A stretch of 64,000 nt of DNA from Candidatus Hodarchaeota archaeon (GCA_048886685.1 JBHLKM010000004.1:114486-178485); one strand, 5' to 3'; positions 824-50,826 are shown, counted from the first letter of the stretch. Numbers and translations are program-made. The notes: generated by a model not told the origin, from the letters alone.

Positions 824-1411
824 TTATTTTTTCTTCTTAAAACTATGTTCATATAATTTGTCCGTTATGGGTTTCATAGCAGGACATTCATCCCAATTGC
901 CCTCAAATTCACACTGTAAACATCTTTTCTTTATATGTTTTACTCTTATATATGCAATTGCCCCAGTAATGAAATGTATTTCAAATAAGATTGAAATCTT
1001 TATGAAAAGGAAAATCGGAAGAAAAAGTGTCGAAATTATTAATAAGCCTGCCCCTATACCGATTGAAGTTTTTGTAAGAATTTTTAGAAACTTGTATTTA
1101 GTTAACCCAAAAATGTTTAAGACGATAGGTATAAAAAATGCAAATGAGAGAAAAAACATAATAAAAAGATTAGTTAATGTTAGTTTAATGAATGTTATTA
1201 TGAATAGGATAGTTACTCCAACTGTGGGATAAAAAGTGAAACAGCCAATACATAATTTAATTCTTCCAAGGGTATATACATGGTTAGAGAATACATCGCA
1301 ATTTGGATGATGTGACAATAATATTGGTTTCATATCTGAGAAAAAAAGTTTTATACGAGAAAAATTCATCCTTGAATCATTACTCTTTTTGACATTAATA
1401 AAAGGTAGCAA
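824..1411 (-). CDS. Multi-pass membrane protein with His/Cys motifs (DUF2085-like)
   Basis: LSHHPNC...H...LCIGC, four hydrophobic segments, C-terminal CxxC...C. True start may be a downstream Met. Confidence 0.6.
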   Translation of the reverse strand: MLPFINVKKSNDSRMNFSRIKLFFSDMKPILLSHHPNCDVFSNHVYTLGRIKLCIGCFTFYPTVGVTILFIITFIKLTLTNLFIMFFLSFAFFIPIVLNIFGLTKYKFLKILTKTSIGIGAGLLIISTLFLPIFLFIKISILFEIHFITGAIAYIRVKHIKKRCLQCEFEGNWDECPAMKPITDKLYEHSFKKKK

Positions 1412-1438
1412 AAAAAAAAGGGGAAATTATGTTAAAAT

Positions 1439-1648
1439 CTAATCTCTCACAATTAAGTAAATTATGCATCCACAACATCCTGTCAGGAGCACAATTAATA
1501 ACCAAACAGCCGCATTCATGTCTCTTTTCTTTGCGTCATTGTATACCCATACGGCTATTAAAATGCCGATGACATAAAATACCACTATTAAAATAGCAAA
1601 AAGTATCCAAAATCCTGCTAAGAAATCAAAAGGATCCTGAAAAAGCAT
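1439..1648 (-). CDS. Small membrane protein, PLDc N-terminal-like domain
   Basis: Pattern WVYNDAKKRDMNAAVWLLIVLLTG..G.IIYLIVR; GAGG upstream of the ATG. Confidence 0.75.
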   Translation of the reverse strand: MLFQDPFDFLAGFWILFAILIVVFYVIGILIAVWVYNDAKKRDMNAAVWLLIVLLTGCCGCIIYLIVRD

Positions 1649-1911
1649 AATATTTTCCTCTTCATAATTCTATTGGTTTTTATTAAGGGTTTTTAATTAA
1701 AGATTATAATATAATGTTTATCTATTATATATTTAAATCTTTATGAAAATACCCAAATATATAGATTTTTTAAAAGTATGGATCTCAATATTATGGGAAA
1801 TTAAAAATTCTTTTTGTTTGGGTTGATCTCATCCCGAAAAAAATTCTTAAAGTTTCAAATATAACTATTAAATAACTTCTATATTAAATTATCTTCGAGA
1901 GTGAATGAACG

Positions 1912-3099
1912 ATGGTCATTTCACAAAGAATTAAGGAAATCTCCTACGCAATACGAGAAATAGCTGCGATTGCCAATAAAGTTGCTAAAAGCGGGAAAAA
2001 AATATATCACTTGAATATTGGAGACCCAGTAATATATGATTTTAATACTCCTCAATATATCTCCCAAGCATTAGCAGATGCTTCTTTTGCAGGTAAAAAT
2101 TATTATGTTGATTCATTAGGAGCTCCAGAACTTAGAGAGGAACTCAGTAAGTCTTTAACTCAGAATTATAATCTTAAAATTAGCCCAAATGATATTTTAG
2201 TTACTACAGGGGTAACTGAAGCAATTTTTTTTCTCATAGCTGCAATGATAGAGAATAAGAAACAGATATTAATTCCTGGTCCAAGTTATCCATTATACAT
2301 AAATTATGCTAAATTTTTTGATGGAATACCTGTAGAATATGCATTAGATGAACTTAATGATTGGGAACCAGATATAGATGATCTAAGGAAAAAAATTACT
2401 AAAAATACTCAAGCAATCTTAATTTGTTCTCCCAATAATCCGACTGGTGTAATGTTTAGTGAAAAAATGATAAAACAAATAATAAACATTGCAGGAGAGT
2501 ATGATATACCTGTTTTATCAGACGAAATTTATGATCAAATTATATATGAAAAACCATTTACATGTCCTGCGAGCCTTAGTAAGGATGTTCCAGTAATCGG
2601 ATTGAATGGTTTTTCAAAATCCCATCTTGCTACAGGATGGCGCTTAGGGTATATGTATTATCATGATCCTGAAAATAAATTAGAAGAATTAAAAGAAGGT
2701 ATTGCAAAAATGGCCAGAGCAAGATTATCTGCAAGTTCAACAGCTCAATATGCTGCTATTGAAATTCTAAGGAATCCGGGAACACACACGAAAGAAATGG
2801 TAACAAAACTAAAAGAGAGAAGAGACTATTCATATGAAAGATTGAGAAAAATCGAAGGGATTACATGTGTTAAAGCGAATGGTGCATTTTACTTATTTCC
2901 AAAATTTGATTTTACTGAATTAGGAAAATGGAAGGATGATAAGGAGTTTGTCATAGACTTACTTGAAACGACAGGAATTTGTACCGTTTATGGTTCTGGA
3001 TTCGGCGAATACGGAAAAGGCCATGTTAGGTTCACATTCTTACCTAATTTGGAAATTTTAGAAACTGTGTATAATAAACTCGAAAATTTTATCAAATAA
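1912..3099 (+). CDS. PLP-dependent aminotransferase class I/II (AlaA/alanine aminotransferase-like)
   Basis: ISYAIR, LNIGDP, PNNPTG, SDEIYD, GFSKSHLATGWRLGY (PLP lysine), GAFYLFP. Confidence 0.92.
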   Translation: MVISQRIKEISYAIREIAAIANKVAKSGKKIYHLNIGDPVIYDFNTPQYISQALADASFAGKNYYVDSLGAPELREELSKSLTQNYNLKISPNDILVTTGVTEAIFFLIAAMIENKKQILIPGPSYPLYINYAKFFDGIPVEYALDELNDWEPDIDDLRKKITKNTQAILICSPNNPTGVMFSEKMIKQIINIAGEYDIPVLSDEIYDQIIYEKPFTCPASLSKDVPVIGLNGFSKSHLATGWRLGYMYYHDPENKLEELKEGIAKMARARLSASSTAQYAAIEILRNPGTHTKEMVTKLKERRDYSYERLRKIEGITCVKANGAFYLFPKFDFTELGKWKDDKEFVIDLLETTGICTVYGSGFGEYGKGHVRFTFLPNLEILETVYNKLENFIK

Positions 3100-18657: not shown

Positions 18658-20124
18658 TTAAATATATGTATGAATTAAATCTATAAGGTTTTTAGAAAAA
18701 TCTGGTAAATTCTTCTCAATCTTTTCGATTTGGAGAGATTTTTCAATAAATAATAGCAAGTATAGATTATACTTTTCAACCTGGATTTTTTTAAATATTA
18801 CTTTTTTCGATTCATCTGCTATTCCTGAAGATACTAAAAAATCTTGTTGTAAAATCTTAAATTCTTTAAACGTTTTATATAATTCTTGGAAATGAGGGGC
18901 AGAAATTTCAAATACTCTTTCAGATATTTCATCTTTAGAATAATTAGATAAAATAATTCCATTTTCATTTAATAATAATATTGCATCTGATTGAGTTTTC
19001 TTCGCAAACTTTTTTAATTGATTTCTAAATAATTCTCGATTAGGACTAAGTTGTGAAAGCCCAAATGAATATGCTGTTATTAGGCTCCAATGATCAAAAA
19101 TACTAGTTTGAAAAATTTTAATTAAAAATCTATCAGAATTCTTCTCAATTTCATCTGCAATAATCTCTAAATTTTTGAATATTTCTTTTGATCCCTTTAA
19201 ATCTGGATCAAATTTATTTAAACAAACAACAATAGGAGGGAATTCCTCTAAGTCAATTAAAGAAACTATAATTTTCCTAAAAAGGTCTAAGGCCTCTTCT
19301 ATTCTCTCAACATCTTGAATATCAATAAAAAAGAAGATTAAATCCACATTATAGAGATAAATTTTACTTTGTTCAAGAAATCTCTCTCGATATTGTTTTT
19401 GACCAGCTAGATCCCAAAGTGAGATTACAGAATTCTGCTCTTCAAAAATATTTTCTTCAGATCTTTCAACACCTCTAGTAGGTAAAGCCTTTATGATTTC
19501 TGAATATCTCTTCTTTATTCCAAACAAAAAACTTGATTTTCCTGCCTTATCCAATCCAGTTAATAGTACCTTGATTTGCCTTCTCACAGAAAATGGATCT
19601 TTTAATTCCTTAGTGAATTCAAACAATTCATTTTTTATATCATCCATTATTCTTTTATGATCTTCAAGTTCTTTTTCTGCTTGTATCTGGCTAGCAGCCT
19701 TATCAATAATTATTCTTAAGTATTTCATATTTTCATAAAAGAAGACTCTATCATTTTCACTGATTAGTATGGTAATAGTAGCTGCTAAAGCTTGACCTCG
19801 GGCTTTTTCTTCAGGGATGAGAAAAAAGTATGTTAGACCATTTAATTTTAAGTCTGGAAACGGTAAAATACCAAAATAGTTAACACCCACGTCTGAACCT
19901 TGTGAATCTTGATAAACGGAATCACCCATAAGTAAACTGATGGTTTTCATTGCAATTAAAAGTCCAGCTTTTTCATCTAAATCAATAGGCCAAATAACTC
20001 TAGGAATGGGCCCCTTTTCATCAAATATGCTTAGAACTATTGCTTTTATTAAATCAGATTTGTTAGCATTTTCGGTTTTTTTATTGGTTTGTTTCATTTT
20101 CGATTTAGAGTCGTTATTGGTCAA
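18658..20124 (-). CDS. uDENN/longin-like domain + Arf/Rag-like small GTPase + roadblock-like domain
   Basis: AIVLSIFDEKGPIP..WP and EEKARGQ; G1 GLDKAGKSS, G3 WDLAGQ, G4 NKFD, G5 TSI; C-terminal AILLLNENGIILS. Confidence 0.85.
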   Translation of the reverse strand: MTNNDSKSKMKQTNKKTENANKSDLIKAIVLSIFDEKGPIPRVIWPIDLDEKAGLLIAMKTISLLMGDSVYQDSQGSDVGVNYFGILPFPDLKLNGLTYFFLIPEEKARGQALAATITILISENDRVFFYENMKYLRIIIDKAASQIQAEKELEDHKRIMDDIKNELFEFTKELKDPFSVRRQIKVLLTGLDKAGKSSFLFGIKKRYSEIIKALPTRGVERSEENIFEEQNSVISLWDLAGQKQYRERFLEQSKIYLYNVDLIFFFIDIQDVERIEEALDLFRKIIVSLIDLEEFPPIVVCLNKFDPDLKGSKEIFKNLEIIADEIEKNSDRFLIKIFQTSIFDHWSLITAYSFGLSQLSPNRELFRNQLKKFAKKTQSDAILLLNENGIILSNYSKDEISERVFEISAPHFQELYKTFKEFKILQQDFLVSSGIADESKKVIFKKIQVEKYNLYLLLFIEKSLQIEKIEKNLPDFSKNLIDLIHTYI

Positions 20125-24510: not shown

Positions 24511-25485
24511 TTATCTATAAAGTATTTCTTTCATTATATTCGTAAACGTTTCAAAATCCTCTTTTTGGAAAACTGGATCCTCCTTAAGTAGCAATAAATA
24601 ATATGGAGTTGAATCTTTCTGTAATGAAATTTGCTTAAATATAAAATTTTTCCCAAATCTTTGAACAATCATTCTATCCTCATATTTATTGTCCATAACG
24701 CCAGTAAATTGTATATTATCACTAAGGGTTAAAAAATAGGGCGTTGAGGCTGTCAGTAAATGCTTAGTCTCAGCATCTTTATAAAAAGAGCCAATTACAA
24801 GTGAATTATCATCAATAACTACTACACCAGCTGAATCGATTTTTTTGGCAAACTCGATTATTGTTCTCTCAATAAGTTCTGATTTTGGATATAAGCTTAA
24901 AAGGATTTCCGACATTGCCTTAATTATGGATCCAAAATCATAAATAGATGTCTCATAAAAGTATATTTCCTTATAATCAGTAGCACCTTTTACTTGCTCT
25001 TTTAAATCTATTGTAAGATTTTCCATTTCATTTAAAGCCCCTCTTCTTAAAGCGGGATCATATTTGTGAAGAAAAACATAAATCGGGGGTTCAATCTCTA
25101 ATTTGTTGAACTGTTCAATTACATCCTTAAAATAACTTATTGCTTCTGGTATTCTAGGTTTGTTTTGAATATCGATGACATAAATAGCAATTTCCGTACC
25201 ATCGAAAAATTTTCCTGGATTCTTTAAATACGAGATTCTATAGCTAATTTGTCCACCTAAATCCCATTCTGCAATTTCTTTTCCTAAAAAATCAAAAACT
25301 CTTCTTTGGGCACCTCTGGTTGGAGATAATACGGCTATTTTTGAAAATTCTCTTTGAAGTGAGAGAATAATACTTGTCTTTCCTGCATCGTCCAATCCCG
25401 TAAATAATAACTTTGATGGTTCCGGTTTCGGTTCCGGTTCTTCTTTTTTCAAATACATTATTGATTGTTTTAGATTTTTCTCCAA
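24511..25485 (-). CDS. Arf/Rag-like small GTPase with C-terminal roadblock-like domain
   Basis: G1 GLDDAGKTS, G2 PTRG, G3 WDLGGQ, G4 HKYD, G5 ETSI; C-terminal GVVVIDDNSLVIGS. Confidence 0.88.
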   Translation of the reverse strand: MEKNLKQSIMYLKKEEPEPKPEPSKLLFTGLDDAGKTSIILSLQREFSKIAVLSPTRGAQRRVFDFLGKEIAEWDLGGQISYRISYLKNPGKFFDGTEIAIYVIDIQNKPRIPEAISYFKDVIEQFNKLEIEPPIYVFLHKYDPALRRGALNEMENLTIDLKEQVKGATDYKEIYFYETSIYDFGSIIKAMSEILLSLYPKSELIERTIIEFAKKIDSAGVVVIDDNSLVIGSFYKDAETKHLLTASTPYFLTLSDNIQFTGVMDNKYEDRMIVQRFGKNFIFKQISLQKDSTPYYLLLLKEDPVFQKEDFETFTNIMKEILYR

Positions 25486-33614: not shown

Positions 33615-35120
33615 ATGGAGGAATTATTCAAAACTTCAATTATCAAGGGATTAATTTTTTCATCTTACGGAGATTTAGGTCCACAACCAATTTATGTATG
33701 GCCTAAATATTATACCGATAAAGAGATAGAAATTGTTAAAGAAGAGAGGGAAAAACAAAACCTTCTCACTCTAACAACTAGAGATGTTACACAAATCTCA
33801 ATTAAAAACCTTAGTTTGTTTATTAGTGATAGAGCATTTACTCCAGATATAGATATTCAAGGTTTAATGTATTTTGCCATCTTACCTTATCCTGATTTCA
33901 ATGCAACATCTTTAACATATTTTCATTATATCAACACTGGTCCTTCTAACTCCCAGATTCCTACAGCTTTTTCAATCTTAGTTGATGAAATTAGTAGAAG
34001 TTTTTTATATAATAATATAAACAGAATTAAACCTATTGTTATTGAATTTTTTAAAACTTTTGATAATAAATTAACTGATGGGTTTCCACCTCAATTGGAG
34101 ATAGAATCTGCATTTCATGATTTATTCAAAAAAATTATAGAGATCGAAAGAAATCCATCAACTCCAATTACTACTCATCGAAAGATGAAGATTTTATTTG
34201 CTGGGCTTGACGATAGTGGTAAAACAAGTTTTTTACTTTCTGTAGATCGAAAATATAGTAAGTTGATTGGATTAAAACCTACTACTGGTGCTAGTATTAA
34301 ATCAATAGAAGCTTTAGGAGCAACAATCTTTTTATGGGATTTAGGTGGACAACTAGAATTTAGAAAAAAATACATTAGTAAAGCAGAAATATATTTATAT
34401 GAAGCAGATTTATTATTTTATTTTATTGATATCAGGAATAAAATTAGATTTGAAGAAAGTATTGAATATCTTCTTGATTTAAAAAGAGTCTTAAAACAAT
34501 TTAATCAAAATACTCCGATTATCTATATTCTATCAAAAGGGGATTCTGATATTATAAAAACTGGGGAAATTATAGAAAATATTGAAACTATTAGAAATAG
34601 TTTAACTGAAATTTCACCAGAAGAACCACCTGAAATATATGTGACTAGTATTTTTCAGATATTTACAATATTAAGAGCCTTCTCTTCAGGAATCTCAAAA
34701 TTAAGTCCTAACAGAAATCTTATCAATCATAATCTTAGGAATTTCTCTTTAAAAACTAACGCTTATTTAACTCTATTGTTAAGTGTAGATGGGTTGGTTT
34801 TAGCAGATTTCTATTCCCCAAAAGCGAAAAAATTGACAAGGTTACCTGAATCCGAGGAATTAGTTAATGTTTTTGAGATAACTGCCCCACAATTTGCTAT
34901 GTTATTCAAAATTTTCTCTAGATTCAAGGCACTACAGGAAGAAGAAGCAATCTTTAAAGTAGCAGATTCAGTGATACTTTTCAGAAGGGTTCAAGCAGCA
35001 GAAAACGATATGTTCATGTTATTTCTGATTGATAACGAAAAAAGAAAAGAAAAAATAAATGCTAAGCTAGTTGATTTCCTTGGTCAAACAAAAGATCTTT
35101 TATTAAGATATATTGCTTAA
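33615..35120 (+). CDS. uDENN/longin-like domain + Arf/Rag-like small GTPase + roadblock-like domain
   Basis: GLIFSSYGDLGPQPIYVWP; G1 GLDDSGKTS, G3 WDLGGQ, variant G4 SKGD; LLLSVDGLVLAD. Paralogue of 18658-20124. Confidence 0.85.
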   Translation: MEELFKTSIIKGLIFSSYGDLGPQPIYVWPKYYTDKEIEIVKEEREKQNLLTLTTRDVTQISIKNLSLFISDRAFTPDIDIQGLMYFAILPYPDFNATSLTYFHYINTGPSNSQIPTAFSILVDEISRSFLYNNINRIKPIVIEFFKTFDNKLTDGFPPQLEIESAFHDLFKKIIEIERNPSTPITTHRKMKILFAGLDDSGKTSFLLSVDRKYSKLIGLKPTTGASIKSIEALGATIFLWDLGGQLEFRKKYISKAEIYLYEADLLFYFIDIRNKIRFEESIEYLLDLKRVLKQFNQNTPIIYILSKGDSDIIKTGEIIENIETIRNSLTEISPEEPPEIYVTSIFQIFTILRAFSSGISKLSPNRNLINHNLRNFSLKTNAYLTLLLSVDGLVLADFYSPKAKKLTRLPESEELVNVFEITAPQFAMLFKIFSRFKALQEEEAIFKVADSVILFRRVQAAENDMFMLFLIDNEKRKEKINAKLVDFLGQTKDLLLRYIA

Positions 35121-43098: not shown

Positions 43099-43812
43099 TT
43101 GGCTATAGAAGATATAAATGGATGGGTTGATGGTATTACCGCAACCGGAGTAGTTCTTCTTGGTATCATATTCGGTTTATTCTTCATCTACAAATCACGA
43201 AAAACTGGTGCAAAACTACTTTTATATTTAGGCTTAGCAAATGTACTTGCAGGATTAATGTTTTTAGGAGTATTCATGGATTTCTTATTTGTTATATTAT
43301 TAAAAGAGAATATAAAAAACAATGGAACAGTTGCCATATTATCATATATCTGGTTTGCGCCTGTTATTATTACTGCAATGTATATTGGAACAGAACTTTT
43401 AATACCAAAAATAAAACTACATATCTTTATAATAGTTTTAATTATCTCCATATTCTTTGAGATAATAATCTTCATGGATCCTCTAAATTCTTTTAATTTT
43501 AATCCAGAACCACCAATACCACAAACTGAAAATTTAATTGATTATAATGTAAATTTATTTACCCTAGCAGGTATGGTGATGGGAGGTTTACTATTGGTTG
43601 TTATAATCTTTCTTGGGTTAGGATTTCTCTTAAAAGGTTTGAAATCTTCAGGAGTAATAAGAAAAAATTTCTTGTTCTTATCAGGAGGTTCTTTATGCTT
43701 CTGCATATTCGGATTACTAGAAGGATTGACAGTTCCTGGATTTCTTGTGATTGTAGTGAGGATAGGTTATCTTAGCTCATTTTGGCTGATGTATCTTGGA
43801 TTAAAAGATTAA
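43099..43812 (+). CDS. Stand-alone seven-TM membrane protein (sensor-like)
   Basis: Seven hydrophobic segments by eye, no cytoplasmic domain; GGTGG upstream of the TTG start. Confidence 0.75.
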   Translation: MAIEDINGWVDGITATGVVLLGIIFGLFFIYKSRKTGAKLLLYLGLANVLAGLMFLGVFMDFLFVILLKENIKNNGTVAILSYIWFAPVIITAMYIGTELLIPKIKLHIFIIVLIISIFFEIIIFMDPLNSFNFNPEPPIPQTENLIDYNVNLFTLAGMVMGGLLLVVIIFLGLGFLLKGLKSSGVIRKNFLFLSGGSLCFCIFGLLEGLTVPGFLVIVVRIGYLSSFWLMYLGLKD

Positions 43813-43926
43813 CGCAATTTTTTTTTCTTATCGATCATTATTTATAGTATTAAATTTTATTACTAGTTATATTAACATTATATCCAAATAATTACAATTC
43901 GGTATTATCAACGTTTTTTATCTATC

Positions 43927-44967
43927 ATGGAAAGGCAAATAATCAAAGCTCTTATATATAGTAATTTAGATGATGAAATCGGCCCTAATCCTAAAGCATA
44001 TTCTCCCCAAGATTTTTCTCAACTAAATCTATTGCATATTAGTGTTAAAACTTTTGCAATTCTTACAGGTGAGAGAGGAATGATACCTGAGTCTTTAGTT
44101 ATTTTACCATTTCCATCTCTGCAATTAAAAGCTTTGATTAAATATATTCAATGGAAAGATCCTGATATACGAGGAGGTATTGGTCAATCTAATATAGCTT
44201 TATTATTTCAAGAGATGGATGATGTAATTTTCTATAAGTACTTGAAAGAATTTTCAAATACTTTTGACGATATTGCTCAAAATATTGCTTTCTTAGAAAG
44301 ATCCAAGGCAAGTAAAGAGGAATTTGGTGATGAATTAAAAAATCTTGAAGCTTCAATAACAGAGCTTATAGAAAAATTAAAAAATCAAGAACTAACAGAA
44401 TATAGGATTGAGGCATTAGCAGAGGAAATAGATAGAAGTTTGATTGATTATCAATTCAAGATAATAGTTGTAGGAGATCCAACTGTTGGAAAAACAAGCT
44501 TAATCTTAAGGTATACTAATAATGCGTTCAGAAGATCATATGTATCAACCCTAGGTGTTCATGTTTCAAATAAGATATTTAAAACTGAAGACTCCACTAT
44601 TATCCAGCTTGTTTTATGGGATGTAGGGGGTCAAGAAAGGTTTAAACTTATGAGAAAACAGTTTTATCAAGGATCTGATGCTATTCTTTTGGTTTTTGAT
44701 TTAACTAACCCTGAAACTTTTAGCAATATCCCCGTCTGGTTTTTAGATATAAAGAAACAGATTAATAAGCTGGATGAAGATTTTACAGGTTATATCATTG
44801 GAAACAAAAAAGATTTAAAGGAGGATATAAAAATAACTGCTGATAATGCTCAAAAGCTAGCCGATCAAATGAATTTAAAATATCTTGAAACTTCTGCTTT
44901 ATCTGGGGAAAATGTAGATTATGCCTTCACAACACTCGCAAAATTCCTTTACGAGTCGCGAAAGTGA
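43927..44967 (+). CDS. uDENN/longin-like domain fused to a Rab-like small GTPase
   Basis: ALIYSNLDDEIGPNP, DPDIRGG; FKIIVVGDPTVGKTS, STLG, WDVGGQERF, GNKKD, ETSAL. Confidence 0.9.
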   Translation: MERQIIKALIYSNLDDEIGPNPKAYSPQDFSQLNLLHISVKTFAILTGERGMIPESLVILPFPSLQLKALIKYIQWKDPDIRGGIGQSNIALLFQEMDDVIFYKYLKEFSNTFDDIAQNIAFLERSKASKEEFGDELKNLEASITELIEKLKNQELTEYRIEALAEEIDRSLIDYQFKIIVVGDPTVGKTSLILRYTNNAFRRSYVSTLGVHVSNKIFKTEDSTIIQLVLWDVGGQERFKLMRKQFYQGSDAILLVFDLTNPETFSNIPVWFLDIKKQINKLDEDFTGYIIGNKKDLKEDIKITADNAQKLADQMNLKYLETSALSGENVDYAFTTLAKFLYESRK

Positions 44968-45127
44968 TAAAGAATGAATTTTTCGTGAAAGGTTAGTTTC
45001 ACGACCAATCAAATTGATTTAGACTTATAATGATAAATATGATTCAATCTTTTATTATTTATATCCTATAAGATGAACTCATTTAATCATGAAAAAACTA
45101 TTTTATATATAACTGCACTCAATAATT

Positions 45128-46159
45128 ATGTCTGAAGAGATTATCAAGGCAATCATATATATTTCGCTTGACGAGTCCATAGGACCCAATCCTCTTTTAT
45201 GGATTCCACTTGATTTATCAGAAAGGATTAGAATGGGAGTAAGTATTAAGACTATTACTATGCTTACTACAGATCAAGGAATCGTTCCTAATTCATTAGT
45301 CATTATGCCGTTCCCTGCATTCAAATTAAAGGGAATTATCAAATATATTGAGAGAGAAGATAATTCTCGACGAGGGGGGATTGCTTTGTCATCAATTGCT
45401 CTATTGTTTAATGAGGCAGATGATCTTATTTTTTATAAGTACATGGATTATCTTGAGCCTGCGTTTTCTAAATATGCAGAAAATATCATTGAATTAGAAA
45501 ATGCAAATGTAAATATTGATGATATATTTGTTGAGATAAATAAACTTCGAAGTGAATTATCAGGTATTCTTAAAGATTTGTATAATAAAGAGAAAGCGAC
45601 TTTAGAGTTAGAAGCTTTTCCTGAGCAGAAAGAAATAGGGGAAGAGATATTAGAATTTGTTTTTAAAGTGGTGGTATGTGGTGATCAGGGTGTTGGTAAA
45701 ACAAGTACAATATTGCGGTTTACTGATAATGCTTTTATGCGTACGTACGTCCCAACACTAGGTGTAAACATTACAGAAAAGGTAATAAAAGTAAAGGATA
45801 AACCTGTTAATTTAATTCTTTGGGATATTGCAGGTCAAGCTAAATTTGAATTAATGAGGCGACACTTTTATCAAGGCGTTAATATAGTTATTTTAATATT
45901 TGATCTTACAAACCCTAAATCATTGGAGAATGTATCTAAATGGTACAATGATATAAGAAAATATCAAAGGGAATTTATTGGTTTCATTTTGGGAAATAAA
46001 GAAGATTTAGTTGATGAGAGAAAAATCCTTTTTGAGGAAGCTTTAAAGATAGCTGAAACTCTAAACCTTAAATATTTTGAGACATCTGCAAAAACTGGTA
46101 AGAATATTGAAGAGAGTTTTTATAAGATAGCAGAAACTTTAGTTAAATCAAATGAATAA
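45128..46159 (+). CDS. uDENN/longin-like domain fused to a Rab-like small GTPase (tandem paralogue)
   Basis: AIIYISLDESIGPNP, DNSRRGG; FKVVVCGDQGVGKTS, PTLG, WDIAGQ, GNKED, ETSAKTG. Confidence 0.9.
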   Translation: MSEEIIKAIIYISLDESIGPNPLLWIPLDLSERIRMGVSIKTITMLTTDQGIVPNSLVIMPFPAFKLKGIIKYIEREDNSRRGGIALSSIALLFNEADDLIFYKYMDYLEPAFSKYAENIIELENANVNIDDIFVEINKLRSELSGILKDLYNKEKATLELEAFPEQKEIGEEILEFVFKVVVCGDQGVGKTSTILRFTDNAFMRTYVPTLGVNITEKVIKVKDKPVNLILWDIAGQAKFELMRRHFYQGVNIVILIFDLTNPKSLENVSKWYNDIRKYQREFIGFILGNKEDLVDERKILFEEALKIAETLNLKYFETSAKTGKNIEESFYKIAETLVKSNE

Positions 46160-46797: not shown

Positions 46798-47391
46798 TTA
46801 TTTAACTTCGATTTTCTTCTTTTCTTTTTTCTCTTCTTCTTTTTTAGGTAATTTCAGAGTTAATATTCCCTTTTCAAGCTTAGCGTCAATATTCTCCTCA
46901 TCTATATTTTCAGGGATCATAAAACTTCTATGATAACTTGCACTGTGATATTCTCTCCTGACATAACCATCTTTCTTCTCTTCATGTTCATTCTTTTGTT
47001 CTCCTTTAATCTCTAAAACACCATCATGAACTGAAATTTCTATGTCACCCTTATCTATACCGGGTAATTCAGCAGTAATACTATAATTATCACCATTATC
47101 CGTTATATTTGTGAGAGGTGTTCGGAAAAACTTCTCTTCGTCAAAAATTTTAAGATTAAATGGCTCAAAATCCCAGAATCTAGAAGGTCTCCATAAATTG
47201 TTGAAATATCTATCTAAATCATCAAATAAATGGTCAAATCTTTTAAATATCGAAAGTGGTTTGTAGCGTCTTAACTGAATTGCACCTTTTTTAACATCCT
47301 CTTTAGGATGTTCTTCTTCTTTAATATCTATGCTTTCTTTTTCTTTTATATCTGACACAATTTTTACCTCCATTATTTTGTTTATTGTCAA
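46798..47391 (-). CDS. Small heat-shock protein (Hsp20/alpha-crystallin)
   Basis: AELPGIDKGDIEI, RRE....YHRSF.IP, AKLEKGILTLKLPK, KKIEVK. True start probably a little downstream. Confidence 0.93.
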   Translation of the reverse strand: MTINKIMEVKIVSDIKEKESIDIKEEEHPKEDVKKGAIQLRRYKPLSIFKRFDHLFDDLDRYFNNLWRPSRFWDFEPFNLKIFDEEKFFRTPLTNITDNGDNYSITAELPGIDKGDIEISVHDGVLEIKGEQKNEHEEKKDGYVRREYHSASYHRSFMIPENIDEENIDAKLEKGILTLKLPKKEEEKKEKKKIEVK

Positions 47392-47570: not shown

Positions 47571-49244
47571 TCAATTAGTAATTTCTTCTTCTTCTACGTT
47601 TAATAATAATTTGAAAGTACTCCCTTTCCCAAATTTGCTTTTTACTAGAATATCTCCTCCTAAAAGATTTGCTAATTTTTTAGAGAGATGAAGTCCTAGG
47701 CCACTCCCTTCTTCGAATTTCCCAGATTCATCAATTCGACTAAATGGTTTAAATAATTTTTTTATATCTTCTTTTTGTATTCCTAGTCCAGTATCTTTAA
47801 CTGAGATAACAATTTCCCTTTTTGATGTTCGAACTTTTATCGTAATTATTCCTTTATCCGTGAATTTTACTGCGTTTCCAATTAGATTTAAAAGAATTTG
47901 GTTTATTCGCTTCTTATCATTGTAGATTGTAAGATGTTCGGGAGTATCCATGAACATTTCTAGTTCTTTTTCCTTAATAGCAACATCAAATGTATCTTTC
48001 AGGATAGCTAGCTCATTTATAAGATCAAATCTCTGTTTTCTTACGTTCAATTTATCAATTTCTATTTTAGCAATATCAATTACGTCATTAATTAATTCAT
48101 GTAAATGATTTGCGCTATTTAGAATAATATTAAGCTGCTTTTCTTGTTCTTTATTTATTTCTCCAGTTCTACCCTTCAAAATCGTATTAGCAAAACCTAT
48201 AATTGAAGTTAATGGCGTTTTTAATTCATGACTTATGCTTGCTAAAAAATTAACTTCTTGTGGTCTAGTAAACATTGCTAAAAAATCAGCTTTAAAATCT
48301 TCATCAGCTTCATGTGTTTCTTGACTTACCGAAACAATTTCAGATTTTATATCTCTTATTATTAAAAGAAATAAGAAGAGTATATAGAAAAAGGCTATAA
48401 AAAACATAATGATAAACAATGGATTAAATCCTTCCGGAATTCCTTCTACTATATCAATAAATATCAAAGCTATGAGGATAGGAAAAGTTAAAATAGCGAA
48501 TGATAACCAATAAGTTAAAGCTCGAGAAATAATCTTAGGATTAATAATTATTGGTAATATAATTATGCAGCAACCTAACATAAAAAGAATCGGACTCAAT
48601 TCTAATGGGTAAACATCAATCTTTTTATGAGCTCTTTCTGCTAGTACTAATGAAATCATGAATAAAATAAATCCGAACAATAAAAATGAAGAAACAGCCT
48701 TAAACTCAAGATGTGACCACTTTGTATAAAGATATAAGATAAATGGAACAAGGATTATTAATGCGGGAAATAAAAATATATTAAAAATACCTCTTGTCAA
48801 ATCATAGTCAAGAGATAGAATCTCTATTATTATTATAATTATTATAATAATTATAAAACCTGTAGTGAGAAGGAATTTTGTTCGCTTTATTATTATTTCG
48901 AAAGCCAATGCGAAGATCATACCTGCTAATCCAACCAAGATATAACTTAACGTGCCGAAAAATTCATAATCTGCTGTATCCGAATAGAAACCGCAGAAAA
49001 AAAAGTTATTAAACTCAATTACTTCGAGTTGAAGAACTTGGAAGAATGTGAAAAACAAACTAATTGCAAAACCAAGAGGTAAACTTGCTAGTCCTAACAT
49101 AATGATTCTTTCATTAAAGACTTCTCTTTTTCGAGCTATATGTATAAAATATAAGCCACACATTATTGCTATTATAAAAGCAGTCCCCCACAAAAATCGT
49201 TCAAGGGGATTCCATATCATTACCGGTTCATTCGGACATGCCAT
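47571..49244 (-). CDS. Multi-TM sensor histidine kinase (HisKA + HATPase)
   Basis: About 9 TM segments; H box ISHELKTPL, N box NLIGNAVKF, DTGLG, LFKPF, GSGLGL. ATG at 49244 has GAGG upstream. Confidence 0.93.
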   Translation of the reverse strand: MACPNEPVMIWNPLERFLWGTAFIIAIMCGLYFIHIARKREVFNERIIMLGLASLPLGFAISLFFTFFQVLQLEVIEFNNFFFCGFYSDTADYEFFGTLSYILVGLAGMIFALAFEIIIKRTKFLLTTGFIIIIIIIIIIEILSLDYDLTRGIFNIFLFPALIILVPFILYLYTKWSHLEFKAVSSFLLFGFILFMISLVLAERAHKKIDVYPLELSPILFMLGCCIIILPIIINPKIISRALTYWLSFAILTFPILIALIFIDIVEGIPEGFNPLFIIMFFIAFFYILFLFLLIIRDIKSEIVSVSQETHEADEDFKADFLAMFTRPQEVNFLASISHELKTPLTSIIGFANTILKGRTGEINKEQEKQLNIILNSANHLHELINDVIDIAKIEIDKLNVRKQRFDLINELAILKDTFDVAIKEKELEMFMDTPEHLTIYNDKKRINQILLNLIGNAVKFTDKGIITIKVRTSKREIVISVKDTGLGIQKEDIKKLFKPFSRIDESGKFEEGSGLGLHLSKKLANLLGGDILVKSKFGKGSTFKLLLNVEEEEITN

Positions 49245-49329
49245 ATTTTCGTCCTCTCTATACAAATTGAATGTTACATTTAAATTTAATAATAACATAA
49301 ATATCAATATTATTCATGAGGGAGTTAAA

Positions 49330-50229
49330 ATGAAACCTTTAATATTAATAGTTGAAGATGACCCAAATATTTTAAAATACCTTAAAATAACATTAGAATT
49401 TAATGAGTGCCAAATTATTACAGCAGAAAATGGAAAAGAAGGATTAAAAGTTCTTTCGGAGTTAAAAAACACCCCTGATCTTATTATAAGTGATATAATG
49501 ATGCCAGAAATTAATGGATATGACTTTTTTAATACAGTTTCTAATAATCCTGCTTATTATCACGTACCGTTCATCTTTTTATCTGCTCTTGATTCTCCTG
49601 AAGATGTCCGACTAGGAAAAATGCTTGGAATTGATGATTATCTCACCAAACCCATTAATGAGGAGGACCTACTGGCAATAGTTGCTGGTAAAATTAAACG
49701 TAGTAAAACAAGCAGTTTGATTAATAAAAAAATTACGGAAATTTTTGGTTCATATGAAATTGAAAAAGAAAATATTCTTGATGAGCATAAAGATTTAATA
49801 ATATTAATAGAAGTAGAATGGGATGACGTTGTAGGTCCAAAAATTGTGAATAGCTTCCCGAAAGATATCAAATTAGACTTTTCACTCAAAAAGATTGGTG
49901 AAGAGCTCTATGATGGAGTTGTAGCAATGTATGGTCAGGATAGCATATTAGATGCTGATGGTTTTTTAGTACCTAAAAAGAATATTAATATTATGGCATA
50001 TGTGTTTTTTGATTCTTATCCTGATAGTTCTTATAGAGGGGGAAGAAAACAATATATGGTTTCTCTTATTGCTACAAAGATTACATATTTCCAATCATTA
50101 AAATTAAAGCAACTATTTATAGAACAATCTTCATTATATAAAAATCAAGATAAATGGGATATTGAAGAATTTTGGAATAAGGCTTCGGATATCCTTACAA
50201 AATCATCATTAATTACCGGTTCTAATTGA
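49330..50229 (+). CDS. Response regulator receiver fused to a C-terminal uDENN/longin-like domain
   Basis: Start at 49330 after GGAG: MKPLILIVEDD...SDIMMPEING...LSA...TKP. Then IEVEWDDVVGPKIVNSFP...DSSYRGGRKQYMVSLI. Confidence 0.88.
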   Translation: MKPLILIVEDDPNILKYLKITLEFNECQIITAENGKEGLKVLSELKNTPDLIISDIMMPEINGYDFFNTVSNNPAYYHVPFIFLSALDSPEDVRLGKMLGIDDYLTKPINEEDLLAIVAGKIKRSKTSSLINKKITEIFGSYEIEKENILDEHKDLIILIEVEWDDVVGPKIVNSFPKDIKLDFSLKKIGEELYDGVVAMYGQDSILDADGFLVPKKNINIMAYVFFDSYPDSSYRGGRKQYMVSLIATKITYFQSLKLKQLFIEQSSLYKNQDKWDIEEFWNKASDILTKSSLITGSN

Positions 50230-50271
50230 AATTTTTATTTAATAATTAAAAGTAAAGAGATGAAATAATTA

Positions 50272-50826
50272 ATGGTAAATGCTGAAAATGAAGAAAAACC
50301 AATAAAGCTTGTAATTATGGGCATGGAAAATGCTGGAAAAACCACGATATTGGATGTGCTTATGGGCAAAATTAATGAAGCACCTAATAGACCACCAAGT
50401 ATGAATCCAACCAAGGGTATAGAAAGGAGTACTTTTTTGTTTTTTGAGAAAGAGACTAAAATTTGGGATTTTGGGGGGCAAGAGTTATATCGTAATGAAT
50501 ATTTACTAAATCCCGAAAATTATTTTTATACAATCTCATTCTTTTATTACGTGGTGGATATTCAAGATTACTATCGTCTTGCTCCCTCAGTGATGTACTT
50601 CAAAGGCGTTTTTAATCTTATTAAAAGATACAGTCCTGATGCAAAAATTATTTTTTTATTTCACAAAATGGACCCCGATTATATTTCAGATGAGAGAAAT
50701 CTAAAGGGAAAATTCCTAGAACAAGTTGAACCAGATTTAAAGTCAGCAAACACACCATATATAATGTTTGATACAACAGTTTTTGATATCCATAGTATTA
50801 AAACTGCTTTTGCTCAAGATTCATAG
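50272..50826 (+). CDS. Single-domain Arf/Rag-like small GTPase
   Basis: G1 GMENAGKTT, G2 PTKG, G3 WDFGGQ, G4 HKMD; 42 bp after the response regulator. Confidence 0.9.
   Translation: MVNAENEEKPIKLVIMGMENAGKTTILDVLMGKINEAPNRPPSMNPTKGIERSTFLFFEKETKIWDFGGQELYRNEYLLNPENYFYTISFFYYVVDIQDYYRLAPSVMYFKGVFNLIKRYSPDAKIIFLFHKMDPDYISDERNLKGKFLEQVEPDLKSANTPYIMFDTTVFDIHSIKTAFAQDS

Follow-up and report, generated by a model that had tools for sequence, protein, structure and literature searches.

Did the chemistry of longin GAPs exist before eukaryotes? Longin GAP complexes (folliculin, GATOR1, C9orf72-SMCR8) switch off eukaryotic Rag and Arf GTPases and are central to nutrient signalling and human disease. 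An obstacle described in the literature is the failure of gene order to pair Asgard GTPases with their regulators (PMC10933270). The locus described here lies in a 64,000-nucleotide stretch of DNA, the whole of which is referred to as the window. Three genes of a Loki-type Asgard archaeon form a signalling module here: a membrane kinase, a response regulator with a longin output domain (P0001) and a Rag-like GTPase (Table 1). The locus and its relatives supply such a pairing, namely a small, soluble regulator and a small GTPase, one of each, plus a candidate on-switch, phosphorylation of Asp55, which can be mimicked in vitro. For the module, the most likely predicted function is that of a GAP which is gated by phosphorylation and acts on the neighbouring GTPase.

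Table 1. Coordinates of the locus features, counted from the first nucleotide of the window.
Feature	Position	Strand	Description and basis
Membrane sensor histidine kinase	47571..49244	(-)	557 aa from ATG at 49244; Pfam, hydropathy, ORF
Divergent intergenic region, kinase/response regulator	49245..49329	(.)	85 bp, AT-rich; sequence reading
Response regulator P0001 (receiver, long linker helix, longin output)	49330..50229	(+)	299 aa; AlphaFold2
Receiver (REC) domain, residues 5-118	49342..49683	(+)	Response_reg 2.1e-24; phospho-acceptor D55, pocket D10/D11, S85, K107
Longin domain, residues 157-296	49798..50217	(+)	Models and fold searches; no Pfam family
W164-D165-x3-G169-P170 motif, β1-β2 hairpin (WDDVVGP)	49819..49839	(+)	Sequence; C9orf72 spacing
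Arg236 (YRGG), β4-β5 loop, candidate arginine finger	50035..50037	(+)	Sequence, conservation, folliculin-like local pattern
Single-domain Rag-like GTPase	50272..50826	(+)	184 aa; Gtr1_RagA 6.6e-19, Arf 2.7e-14 (Pfam)

The kinase ORF extended over 47571-49307(-), with its first ATG at 49244. About 9-10 hydrophobic segments were located in residues 1-300 by a hydropathy scan, N-terminal to a HisKA domain (residues 332-395; 9.3e-18, 64.5 bits) with the H-box SHELKTPL, which was followed by a HATPase_c domain (residues 443-550; 5.5e-26, 91.6 bits). With the H-box histidine in HisKA and a HATPase_c domain, the product is an orthodox sensor histidine kinase. An earlier note on this DNA had described a multi-TM histidine kinase divergent from the regulator, and coordinates, Pfam and hydropathy agreed with it, including the distance between the two starts (49330-49244-1 = 85 bp). 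The sequence GAGGGAG was present 6 bp 5' of the regulator ATG. The receiver domain of the regulator matched PF00072 with 86.2 bits (cut-off 30.2). It was intact, as had been read from its EDD, D, S and K residues, since the pocket was complete (E9-D10-D11, D55, S85, K107-P108). Across 61 homologues, D55 and K107 were each conserved to 90% or more.

The full-length AlphaFold2 model of P0001 had a pLDDT of 89.6 and a pTM of 0.84. Foldseek results for the full-length protein were dominated by receiver domains, so the output domain (C-terminal 150 aa) was modelled separately (pLDDT 91.4). Its elements, assigned with DSSP, followed the order β-β-α-β-β-β-α-α: β1 (157-165), β2 (169-176), α1 (186-201), β3 (210-216), β4 (221-231), β5 (239-248), α2 (253-271) and α3 (278-296). 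The five-stranded sheet and the absence of an N-terminal helix are those of a longin fold. With VIA-align, the best matches were Lst4 (Z 12.4), C9orf72-SMCR8 (Z 12.2) and folliculin (6nzd_H, Z 11.7); further down came SMCR8/C9orf72 (6lt0, Z 10.6), generic longins (about 9) and roadblocks (about 7-8). With Foldseek, the top matches were GATOR1 chains as long as NPRL2 (4e-5 to 1e-4) and chains of FLCN-FNIP2 entries. Longin domains occupied the top ranks in both searches. The comparison with NPRL2, FLCN, SMCR8 and C9orf72 had been proposed in the earlier note, which regarded the output domain as a longin and not as DNA-binding; these proteins were the nearest solved structures, and the output domain is indeed a longin.

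At the sequence level, Pfam searches with the output domain alone and with 19 family members returned nothing significant. The Folliculin (PF11704) and NPR2 (PF06218) profiles left the window's domain unmatched, and Folliculin matched one of the 19 members with an E-value of 0.14. Nor did a profile search across the full set of PDB sequences give a relevant match. A search of 1.84 billion proteins yielded 163 representatives of the family (E<=1e-3), which was present in 90 of 300 genomes of the window's phylum. A related-locus search with the whole protein retrieved bacterial receivers almost exclusively, along with one Asgard contig. The nearest ESM Atlas clusters, with weak scores (0.76-0.80), were from Promethearchaeota; NPR2 was annotated on 19% of one nearby cluster (weak score, 0.76). 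The P0001 chain ended 3 residues past helix α3, without a DENN-type domain, and no second longin gene that could encode a heterodimer partner was found at the locus.

Two sequence motifs that had been quoted for the regulator, IEVEWDDVVGP and DSSYRGGRKQYMVSLI, were both present. The GP motif at the β1-β2 hairpin, a feature of the FLCN/SMCR8/C9orf72/NPRL2 type, was found in P0001 as G169-P170, and W164, G169 and P170 were at least 90% conserved (61 homologues). The counterpart in C9orf72, W33-D34...G38-P39, has a spacing identical to that in P0001, and the GP motif is specific to GAP longins and missing from GEF longins (PMC12290439). The YRGG codons are located at 50032-50043. The surroundings of Arg236 shared D(-4), G(+1), R/K(+4) and Y(+6) with residues 150-178 of folliculin around R164, a likeness of local pattern and fold topology and not a residue-level superposition; the folliculin finger segment was confirmed in PDB 6ulg_L. 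From this FLCN R164-like pattern, Arg236 is a candidate for the arginine finger that FLCN, SMCR8 and NPRL2 provide with R164, R147 and R78. One chain combines the W-D-x3-G-P motif with the conserved Arg236 in the neighbouring β4-β5 hairpin loop. Arginine occupied this position in 35 of the 36 receiver-longin genes with both kinase and GTPase neighbours, whereas it has been lost from an orphan clade of paralogues (8 rows), whose genes have neither a kinase nor a GTPase beside them.

The GTPase gene starts 42 bp past the regulator stop codon and encodes a G domain only, without a C-terminal roadblock dimerisation domain. Its motifs were a GMENAGKT P-loop, DFGGQ and HKMD. HKxD is the Rag-typical G4 motif, and it was also found in LokiRagM when the two were aligned. 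The Gtr1_RagA match reached 68.7 bits (cut-off 22). The closest solved relatives were the Lokiarchaeota Rag-like GTPases 8zla/9m28 (LokiRagM, 3.3e-31), and the best eukaryotic matches were RagA and Gtr1 (about 5e-13). The protein had been called a single-domain Arf/Rag-like GTPase; its position, its single domain and its Rag-like character were borne out, the Arf-like part of the description was not. The switch I segment (MNPTKG) contains no arginine for a role in cis.

Linkage of the locus, on which the earlier proposal depended, proved to be conserved. An orthologue of the GTPase was present in 7 of 69 sampled family genomes. These 7 genomes span three genera, and every copy abutted a receiver-longin gene, with a different gene orientation in one. 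A divergent kinase was also present at three orthologous loci (L062, L179 and L180). More widely, 36 of 65 receiver-longin genes had a kinase at a distance of at most 400 bp and a GTPase at a distance of at most 3.5 kb, and 15 had neither neighbour, two of these in the host genome. An orphan paralogue without the arginine is encoded on contig 14 of this genome (38149-39036). A related cassette, with genes for ArsR, GTPase, kinase and receiver-longin on one strand, was widespread and also had a copy in the host genome, on contig 1 (about 102685-106818). Relative to this cassette, the locus is a paralogue, rearranged and lineage-restricted. Cassette GTPases from other genomes were mostly 180-199 aa long (31/39); the P-loop was kept, as were DxxGQ (40/41) and HKxD (36/41). 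In a phylogenetic tree, 33 cassette GTPases and the contig-1 copy formed one clade (support 0.996) to the exclusion of the genome's other 96 GTPase ORFs. A recent duplication of the widespread cassette's GTPase as the origin of the window's GTPase was unsupported, as the latter grouped with two further cassette GTPases in a separate small clade (support 1.0), the one placement among the Rag-like GTPases that the tree resolved for it. An Hsp20 gene adjoined both cassettes of the host genome, and at 8 loci from the same genus it lay directly downstream of the receiver-longin gene. It was absent at orthologous locus L062, and a link between the small heat-shock gene and the cassette was set aside.

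Longins of this family were also found joined to GTPases. A longin-domain profile matched the N-termini of the window GTPases encoded at 43927 (E 1.5e-7), 18658 (1.8e-4) and 45128 (7e-3), and the N-domain of the 18658 protein matched that of the 33615 protein (8.5e-15). Through this chain of similarities, the claim that four GTPases of the window carry the same domain holds. Natural fusions included a Ras-longin protein (P0002, longin 62% identical), Arf-longin proteins (P0023 and P0135) and kinase-receiver-longin hybrids (P0030 and P0045), all of which retained WD..GP and the arginine. Proteins of about 650 aa from a second family (f24) were rejected as further hybrids of the latter kind; their longin is N-terminal and the kinase is absent. 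TPR, RsbRD_N and DUF1638 modules were fused to the same longin family as well. The features of the locus are not a chance pattern. Because of the strictly conserved adjacency and the natural GTPase-longin fusions, the bare Rag-like GTPase 42 bp downstream is the likely target of the regulator. The 42-bp spacer between the two genes is AT-rich and TATA-like, so that co-transcription is only a possibility, and since the genome has 97 GTPase ORFs, other targets are possible.

These observations led us to propose the following mechanism. The kinase would sense a signal that is probably membrane-associated and, judging from the domains and the conserved adjacency, phosphorylate Asp55 of the regulator. 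Phosphorylation may promote dimerisation of the receiver via the long linker helix, and this could assemble or unmask a longin homodimer. The homodimer would dock on the GTP-bound GTPase and insert Arg236, so that GTP hydrolysis becomes faster. In this way the module would work as an off-switch, with GAP activity gated by phosphorylation. Several points weigh against the GAP reading: the Folliculin and NPR2 Pfam models do not recognise the longin; longin/roadblock platforms are mostly GEFs or scaffolds, not GAPs; and eukaryotic GAP longins are heterodimers with DENN domains, and both features are missing at this locus.

The receiver-longin protein might instead act on the adjacent GTPase as a phospho-gated GEF, or serve as a scaffold or effector platform specific to one nucleotide state, with the arginine used for binding or structure. 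Conserved linkage and fusions show partnership, not direction. Longin/roadblock platforms being mostly GEFs (PMC10933270), it is also of note that TRAPP, Mon1-Ccz1 and DENN were among the structural matches of the output domain (VIA-align, Z 8-9.5). In the preprint of Liu et al. (bioRxiv 10.1101/2020.10.19.343400), an FLCN-like module of Asgard archaea was likewise suggested to act as a GEF. We nevertheless consider a GEF or platform unlikely, given that the GP motif is missing from GEF longins (PMC12290439), that the loop arginine goes with a linked GTPase and has disappeared from the clade without one, and that the GAP family provided the top structural matches.

The signal could also flow in reverse or in a loop, the GTPase modulating the kinase, as has been proposed for the actinobacterial G-protein systems (conservons), while the receiver-longin protein closes a feedback loop or acts elsewhere. 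In favour are the order of the widespread cassette, ArsR, GTPase, kinase and receiver-longin, all on one strand, and the conservons, whose single operon encodes a Ras-like GTPase together with a kinase and a roadblock protein (PMC13343842, PMC13621833). This is improbable as the main explanation: the window kinase is on the opposite strand, yet the receiver-longin gene still has the GTPase gene next to it, the orthologous locus L056 keeps this pair with no kinase found within a 14.4-kb stretch, and GTPase-longin fusions without a kinase exist. It is compatible with GAP activity, and the two are not mutually exclusive. Least probable of all is that the adjacency is functionally meaningless for the pair and the longin acts on others of the 97 GTPases, on membranes or on other partners, for although orphan receiver-longin paralogues, fusions to TPR, RsbRD_N and DUF1638, and the general absence of Loki GTPase genes from operons with longin genes (Tran et al., PMC10933270) speak for it, the pairing in each of the 7 sampled genomes with the orthologue, from three genera and with a different orientation in one, and the dedicated clade of cassette GTPases speak against it.

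Returning to the phospho-gated GAP, a bolder version of it can be put forward tentatively, with more doubt than confidence. The receiver-longin protein could be a still-living prototype, homodimeric in form, for the longin GAPs of eukaryotes, with a C9orf72-type WD-GP motif and an FLCN/SMCR8-type finger in one chain, in which phosphorylation by the kinase switches on GAP activity toward a dedicated roadblock-less Rag-like GTPase. If so, longin-GAP control of Rag-type GTPases would predate eukaryotes and would originally have been wired to a two-component phosphorelay, not to nutrient sensors.

Known eukaryotic longin GAPs are FLCN-FNIP (acting on RagC/D), GATOR1 NPRL2-NPRL3 (RagA/B) and C9orf72-SMCR8-WDR41 (Arf), and 'FLCN/SMCR8-type' longins are known from Asgard archaea (PMC12290439). 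P0001 shares with these proteins the longin fold, with the best structural scores, and the GP motif in the β1-β2 hairpin; it also has an arginine, the candidate finger, in the β4-β5 loop and a predicted Rag-like client. In contrast to them, it lacks a DENN domain and, at the locus, any separately encoded heterodimer partner, unites on a single chain a WD motif like that of C9orf72 with an arginine like that of FLCN/SMCR8, uses a receiver as input and is unmatched by the Folliculin and NPR2 Pfam models; its GTPase lacks a roadblock.

The actinobacterial G-protein systems (conservons CvnA-D/Mfp) include a roadblock GAP, MfpD (PMC13343842, PMC13621833, PMC9769811). They differ in being bacterial, in having no receiver, a stand-alone MglB-type roadblock regulator and an extra CvnC/DUF742 protein, and in that their GTPase is MglA/Ras-like, not Rag-like. 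A conservon is an operon of CvnA (kinase), CvnB (roadblock), CvnC (DUF742) and CvnD (GTPase), whereas here a receiver-longin replaces the roadblock protein and no gene at the locus takes the place of CvnC; the three-gene locus is an analogue of the conservon, not a member. To our knowledge, MglB of Myxococcus is not an arginine-finger GAP. In the Myxococcus MglA/MglB/RomR-RomX polarity module, a roadblock-fold GAP also controls a small GTPase with participation of a receiver protein, RomR, but receiver and roadblock are separate proteins and the input is chemosensory, without a dedicated adjacent kinase (PMC9481161, PMC6785124, PMC13408092). Closer by organism group are the Loki longin-GTPase(-roadblock) fusions, in which Rag/Rab-like G domains carry a longin of the same superfamily (Tran et al. 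2024, PMC10933270); four genes of this kind lie in the window. Unlike in these fusions and LokiRagM, regulator and GTPase are separate genes here, the regulator is predicted to be phospho-controlled and the GTPase has no roadblock.

Asgard longins' GP motif and their arginine finger, with the idea of GAP activity, were published in 2025 (PMC12290439). Fusions of NPRL2-like longins to two-component domains in Asgard archaea were described by Liu et al. (bioRxiv 10.1101/2020.10.19.343400, section 10, Fig. 5c; Nature 2021). P0001, with a two-component domain and an NPRL2/FLCN-like longin in an Asgard genome, belongs with these, and the inference drawn there is the same, namely that prokaryotic two-component systems, together with 'eukaryotic' regulators, are at the core of growth or GTPase regulation. 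As far as that section goes, its text describes no conserved cassette with a dedicated bare Rag-like GTPase, and most such genes are given as lacking conserved neighbourhoods. The receiver-longin fusion and the concept of two-component systems with NPRL2-like longins are therefore already published, and the locus is not a new kind of system. What the locus contributes is a concrete, testable regulator-target pair and the comparative evidence that the arginine is kept with a linked GTPase and lost without one; the two parallel cassettes in one genome can be used to compare specificity.

A membrane histidine kinase gene, a response regulator gene and a small-GTPase gene lie side by side in the window, which is AT-rich (G+C about 29%) and dense in small-GTPase genes (table). 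An earlier note had placed these three genes here, and ORF and domain matches found them where it did; every sequence string that it quoted was also present. The kinase and the response regulator are encoded on opposite strands, 85 bp apart, and the GTPase gene starts 42 bp past the stop codon of the response regulator. The receiver pocket of the regulator is complete (E9-D10-D11, D55, S85, K107). An Hsp20 gene was located 180 bp downstream of the kinase gene.

Features of the locus, its paralogues and related genes (C, other contigs of the source genome; L, loci from genomes of relatives)
Feature	Location	Coordinates	Strand	Description
Membrane histidine kinase	window	47571-49307, first ATG 49244	-	557 aa; ~9-10 hydrophobic segments, then HisKA + HATPase_c
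Response regulator (receiver-longin)	window	49330-50229	+	299 aa; Response_reg 2.1e-24
GTPase	window	50272-50826	+	184 aa; Gtr1_RagA 6.6e-19 best, Arf 2.7e-14 second
Hsp20 gene	window	46798-47391	-
Multi-TM protein gene, then two tandem longin-Rab fusion genes	window	43099-46159 (fusions 43927-44967, 45128-46159)	+	multi-TM protein without Pfam match
Further Rag-like GTPase	window	18658-20124	-
Further Rag-like GTPase	window	33615-35120	+
Further Rag-like GTPase	window	24511-25485	-
Common-form cassette	C1	~102187-107215	-	ArsR-type gene, 182-aa Rag-like GTPase, 839-aa PAS histidine kinase, 307-aa receiver-longin, Hsp20-like gene
Orphan receiver-longin paralogue	C14	38149-39036	-	no kinase/GTPase neighbour; same-genus 8-row clade, loop arginine lost
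Orphan receiver-longin paralogue	C13	70805-71791	+	no kinase/GTPase neighbour; YRGG kept; closest paralogue of window gene
GTPase-longin ORF	C18	69866-72706	+	946 aa
GTPase-longin ORF	C9	733-4194	+	1153 aa
Receiver-longin and orthologous GTPase	L183 (= L099, CAZGJX010000080.1)	915-2380		convergent
~650-aa protein	L184	4926-6845
~650-aa protein	L185	6725-8656
~650-aa protein	L186	4800-6647

Residues 146-299 of the regulator, its output domain, matched no Pfam family and, in a sequence search, no PDB entry. It is nevertheless a genuine family: in a set of 1.84 billion proteins, E ≤ 1e-3 was reached by 163 representatives and E ≤ 1e-10 by 99. Most members are about 295 aa long and carry the domain in the same place, C-terminal behind a receiver. 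An AlphaFold2 model of the whole regulator, built with 60 full-length homologues, reached a pLDDT of 89.6 and a pTM of 0.84, with a long helix (111-139) connecting receiver and output domain. A structure search with this full-length model retrieved receivers only, and the output domain was modelled alone (pLDDT 91.4) for the fold searches. With this model, Foldseek matched chains of the GATOR1 entries 9v0j_A (3.9e-5), 9o5d_D, 9o5a_H and 7t3b_B, taken to be NPRL2 from their length, and the folliculin-FNIP2 complex chains 6ulg_N and 8dhb_J. DENND1A/B, DENND10, yeast SEA-complex chains, the Lokiarchaeota longin 8yqg and C9orf72-SMCR8 were also matched. The exhaustive VIA-align ranking was headed by the Lst4 longin (Z 12.4), C9orf72-SMCR8 (7o2w_A, 12.2) and folliculin (6nzd_H, 11.7; identity confirmed against the PDB), followed by the Loki longin (11.5) and 6lt0_B (10.6). 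Lower Z scores went to TRAPP, sedlin and SNARE longins (about 8-9.5) and to roadblock proteins (about 7-8). Given its element order (b-b-a-b-b-b-a-a, that of longins) and the top matches to GATOR1, folliculin and C9orf72-SMCR8, the modelled domain adopts a longin fold, with the NPRL2/FLCN/SMCR8/C9orf72 family, to which the earlier note had likened it, as its nearest solved relatives.

W164, G169 and P170 are each conserved in at least 90% of homologues, and the W-D-x3-G-P spacing equals that of W33-D34...G38-P39 in C9orf72. This GP motif is common to C9orf72, SMCR8, FLCN and NPRL2, where it adjoins the arginine finger, and is missing in non-GAP longins (PMC12290439). Arg236 of the regulator lies in the b4-b5 loop; from longin topology (sheet order b2-b1-b5-b4-b3), this hairpin would sit beside the b1-b2 hairpin at the same sheet end. 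The finger segment of folliculin corresponds exactly in sequence to residues 150-178 of 6ulg_L, and its R164 is flanked by D (−4), G (+1), R (+4) and Y (+6); around R236, the corresponding places are taken by D232, G237, K240 and Y242. This local pattern, rather than a superposition, supports positional equivalence of R236 and R164. The loop arginine was present in 35 of the 36 receiver-longin genes with both kinase and GTPase neighbours. It was absent from a clade of eight rows with a longer loop and neither neighbour, the contig-14 copy included; these rows are kin and essentially record one evolutionary event, not a statistic. The direction, arginine kept with GTPase linkage and lost without it, is the one expected if the arginine acts in catalysis on the linked GTPase.

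The closest solved relatives of the window GTPase were two Lokiarchaeota 'GTP-binding proteins', among them the monomeric Rag-like GTPase LokiRagM (8zla, identical in sequence to 9m28; 3.3e-31). RagA and Gtr1 came next (about 5e-13), ahead of weaker matches to G-alpha and Arl proteins. In its sequence the P-loop is intact and both DFGGQ and HKMD are present; the switch I segment (MNPTKG) carries no arginine able to act in cis, and there is no roadblock domain of the kind that Rag proteins have. We call it, from these sequence features, a bare Rag-like G domain outside the Rag family proper. Among the cassette GTPases, DxxGQ is retained in 40/41 and HKxD in 36/41, and a length of 180-199 aa was found for 31 of the 39 from other genomes. 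Three more Rag-like GTPases are encoded in the window, two with an N-terminal longin (one with an A-R-G loop, one arginine-less) and the third with a C-terminal extension only.

Of 300 genomes sampled from the phylum, 90 matched a profile of the longin domain, with a concentration in the family of the window (59/67) and one other family (21/21). Neighbourhoods of about 14 kb were surveyed around 60 genes with this domain, to which the four copies of the source genome were added. Among the 65 receiver-longin genes classified, several at loci cut by contig ends, 36 had a kinase within 400 bp and a GTPase within 3.5 kb, nine a kinase only, five a GTPase only and 15 neither. The common cassette comprises GTPase, kinase and receiver-longin on one strand, usually with an ArsR-type gene ahead (at about 30 of the examined cassette loci it immediately precedes the GTPase gene). 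The source genome has such a cassette on contig C1, outside the window. An Hsp20-like gene directly follows the receiver-longin there and at eight same-genus loci; none was found at the orthologous locus L062.

The window has another arrangement, divergent kinase, receiver-longin and then GTPase, and its regulator falls in a small, well-supported clade. Orthologues of its GTPase (59-80% identity) occurred in 7 of 69 other genomes of the family, across three genera, and all seven directly adjoin a receiver-longin gene, so that the linkage was kept. A divergent kinase is present at three of these loci; contig ends truncate two, one lacks a kinase in the fetched stretch and one has the GTPase convergent. 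At this last locus (L183) the gene ends overlap by a few bases, so the two genes have stayed neighbours even in an arrangement that rules out a shared transcript. In a FastTree phylogeny of all 97 ORFs with a small-GTPase domain in the source genome and 39 cassette GTPases, whose deeper placements are unsure, 33 cassette GTPases and the contig-1 copy formed one clade (support 0.996) that excluded every other GTPase of the source genome. The window GTPase clustered with two other cassette GTPases in a clade of its own (support 1.0).

The longin also occurs fused to its presumed partners. Among family representatives, it stands behind a Ras-like G domain in P0002 (longin 62% identical), behind Arf-like G domains in P0023 and P0135, and behind a complete kinase and receiver in P0030 and P0045; it was also found on sensor-type or TPR modules. 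Wherever the longin sits in another architecture, its WD..GP signature was kept; of the examples examined, all but one also keep the arginine. Two long ORFs of the source genome join a small-GTPase domain to a WD/GP-type longin with an I-R-G-G loop. These fusions support a physical partnership of the longin with small GTPases and phosphorelay. The two tandem longin-Rab fusion genes in the window encode longins with D-x-x-I-G-P and R-G-G loops, distant relatives of the output domain. In a second family of the phylum, the proteins of about 650 aa at L184, L185 and L186 have the same longin N-terminally; the long region behind it matched none of the four profiles used, and these proteins are probably of the longin-TPR type to which P0122 and P0131 belong.

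Alongside the observed domains, fold, motifs, conserved adjacency and fusions of the module stands a mechanism in which the kinase would pass a phosphoryl group to D55, dimerisation would activate the regulator, the neighbouring GTPase would be its target and Arg236 would serve as arginine finger. The earlier note had left open whether the regulator is a GAP or a GEF; a GAP is favoured because of the GP motif, the arginine distribution and the ranking of structural matches. We regard the chances that the regulator is a GAP of the adjacent GTPase as about even. The broader reading, a phospho-controlled regulator of the adjacent GTPase, appears likely, and those parts of the earlier interpretation that can be tested in silico, the longin fold and the conserved linkage, are supported.

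The receiver-longin protein is of an already published kind. Liu et al. proposed that growth regulation in Asgard archaea is centred on two-component systems. From a cultured Loki archaeon, Tran et al. (PMC10933270) reported proteins that join longin and GTPase domains, with GTPase genes generally outside longin-gene operons, which hinders the matching of regulators to GTPases. A full-text search returned no paper that treats response regulators, longins and histidine kinases of archaea together in this way, and the portions of the literature examined contained no description of the conserved GTPase partner. The module has bacterial analogues in the actinobacterial conservons and the MglA/MglB/RomR module of Myxococcus. 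The worth of the locus lies in its testability more than in conceptual novelty.
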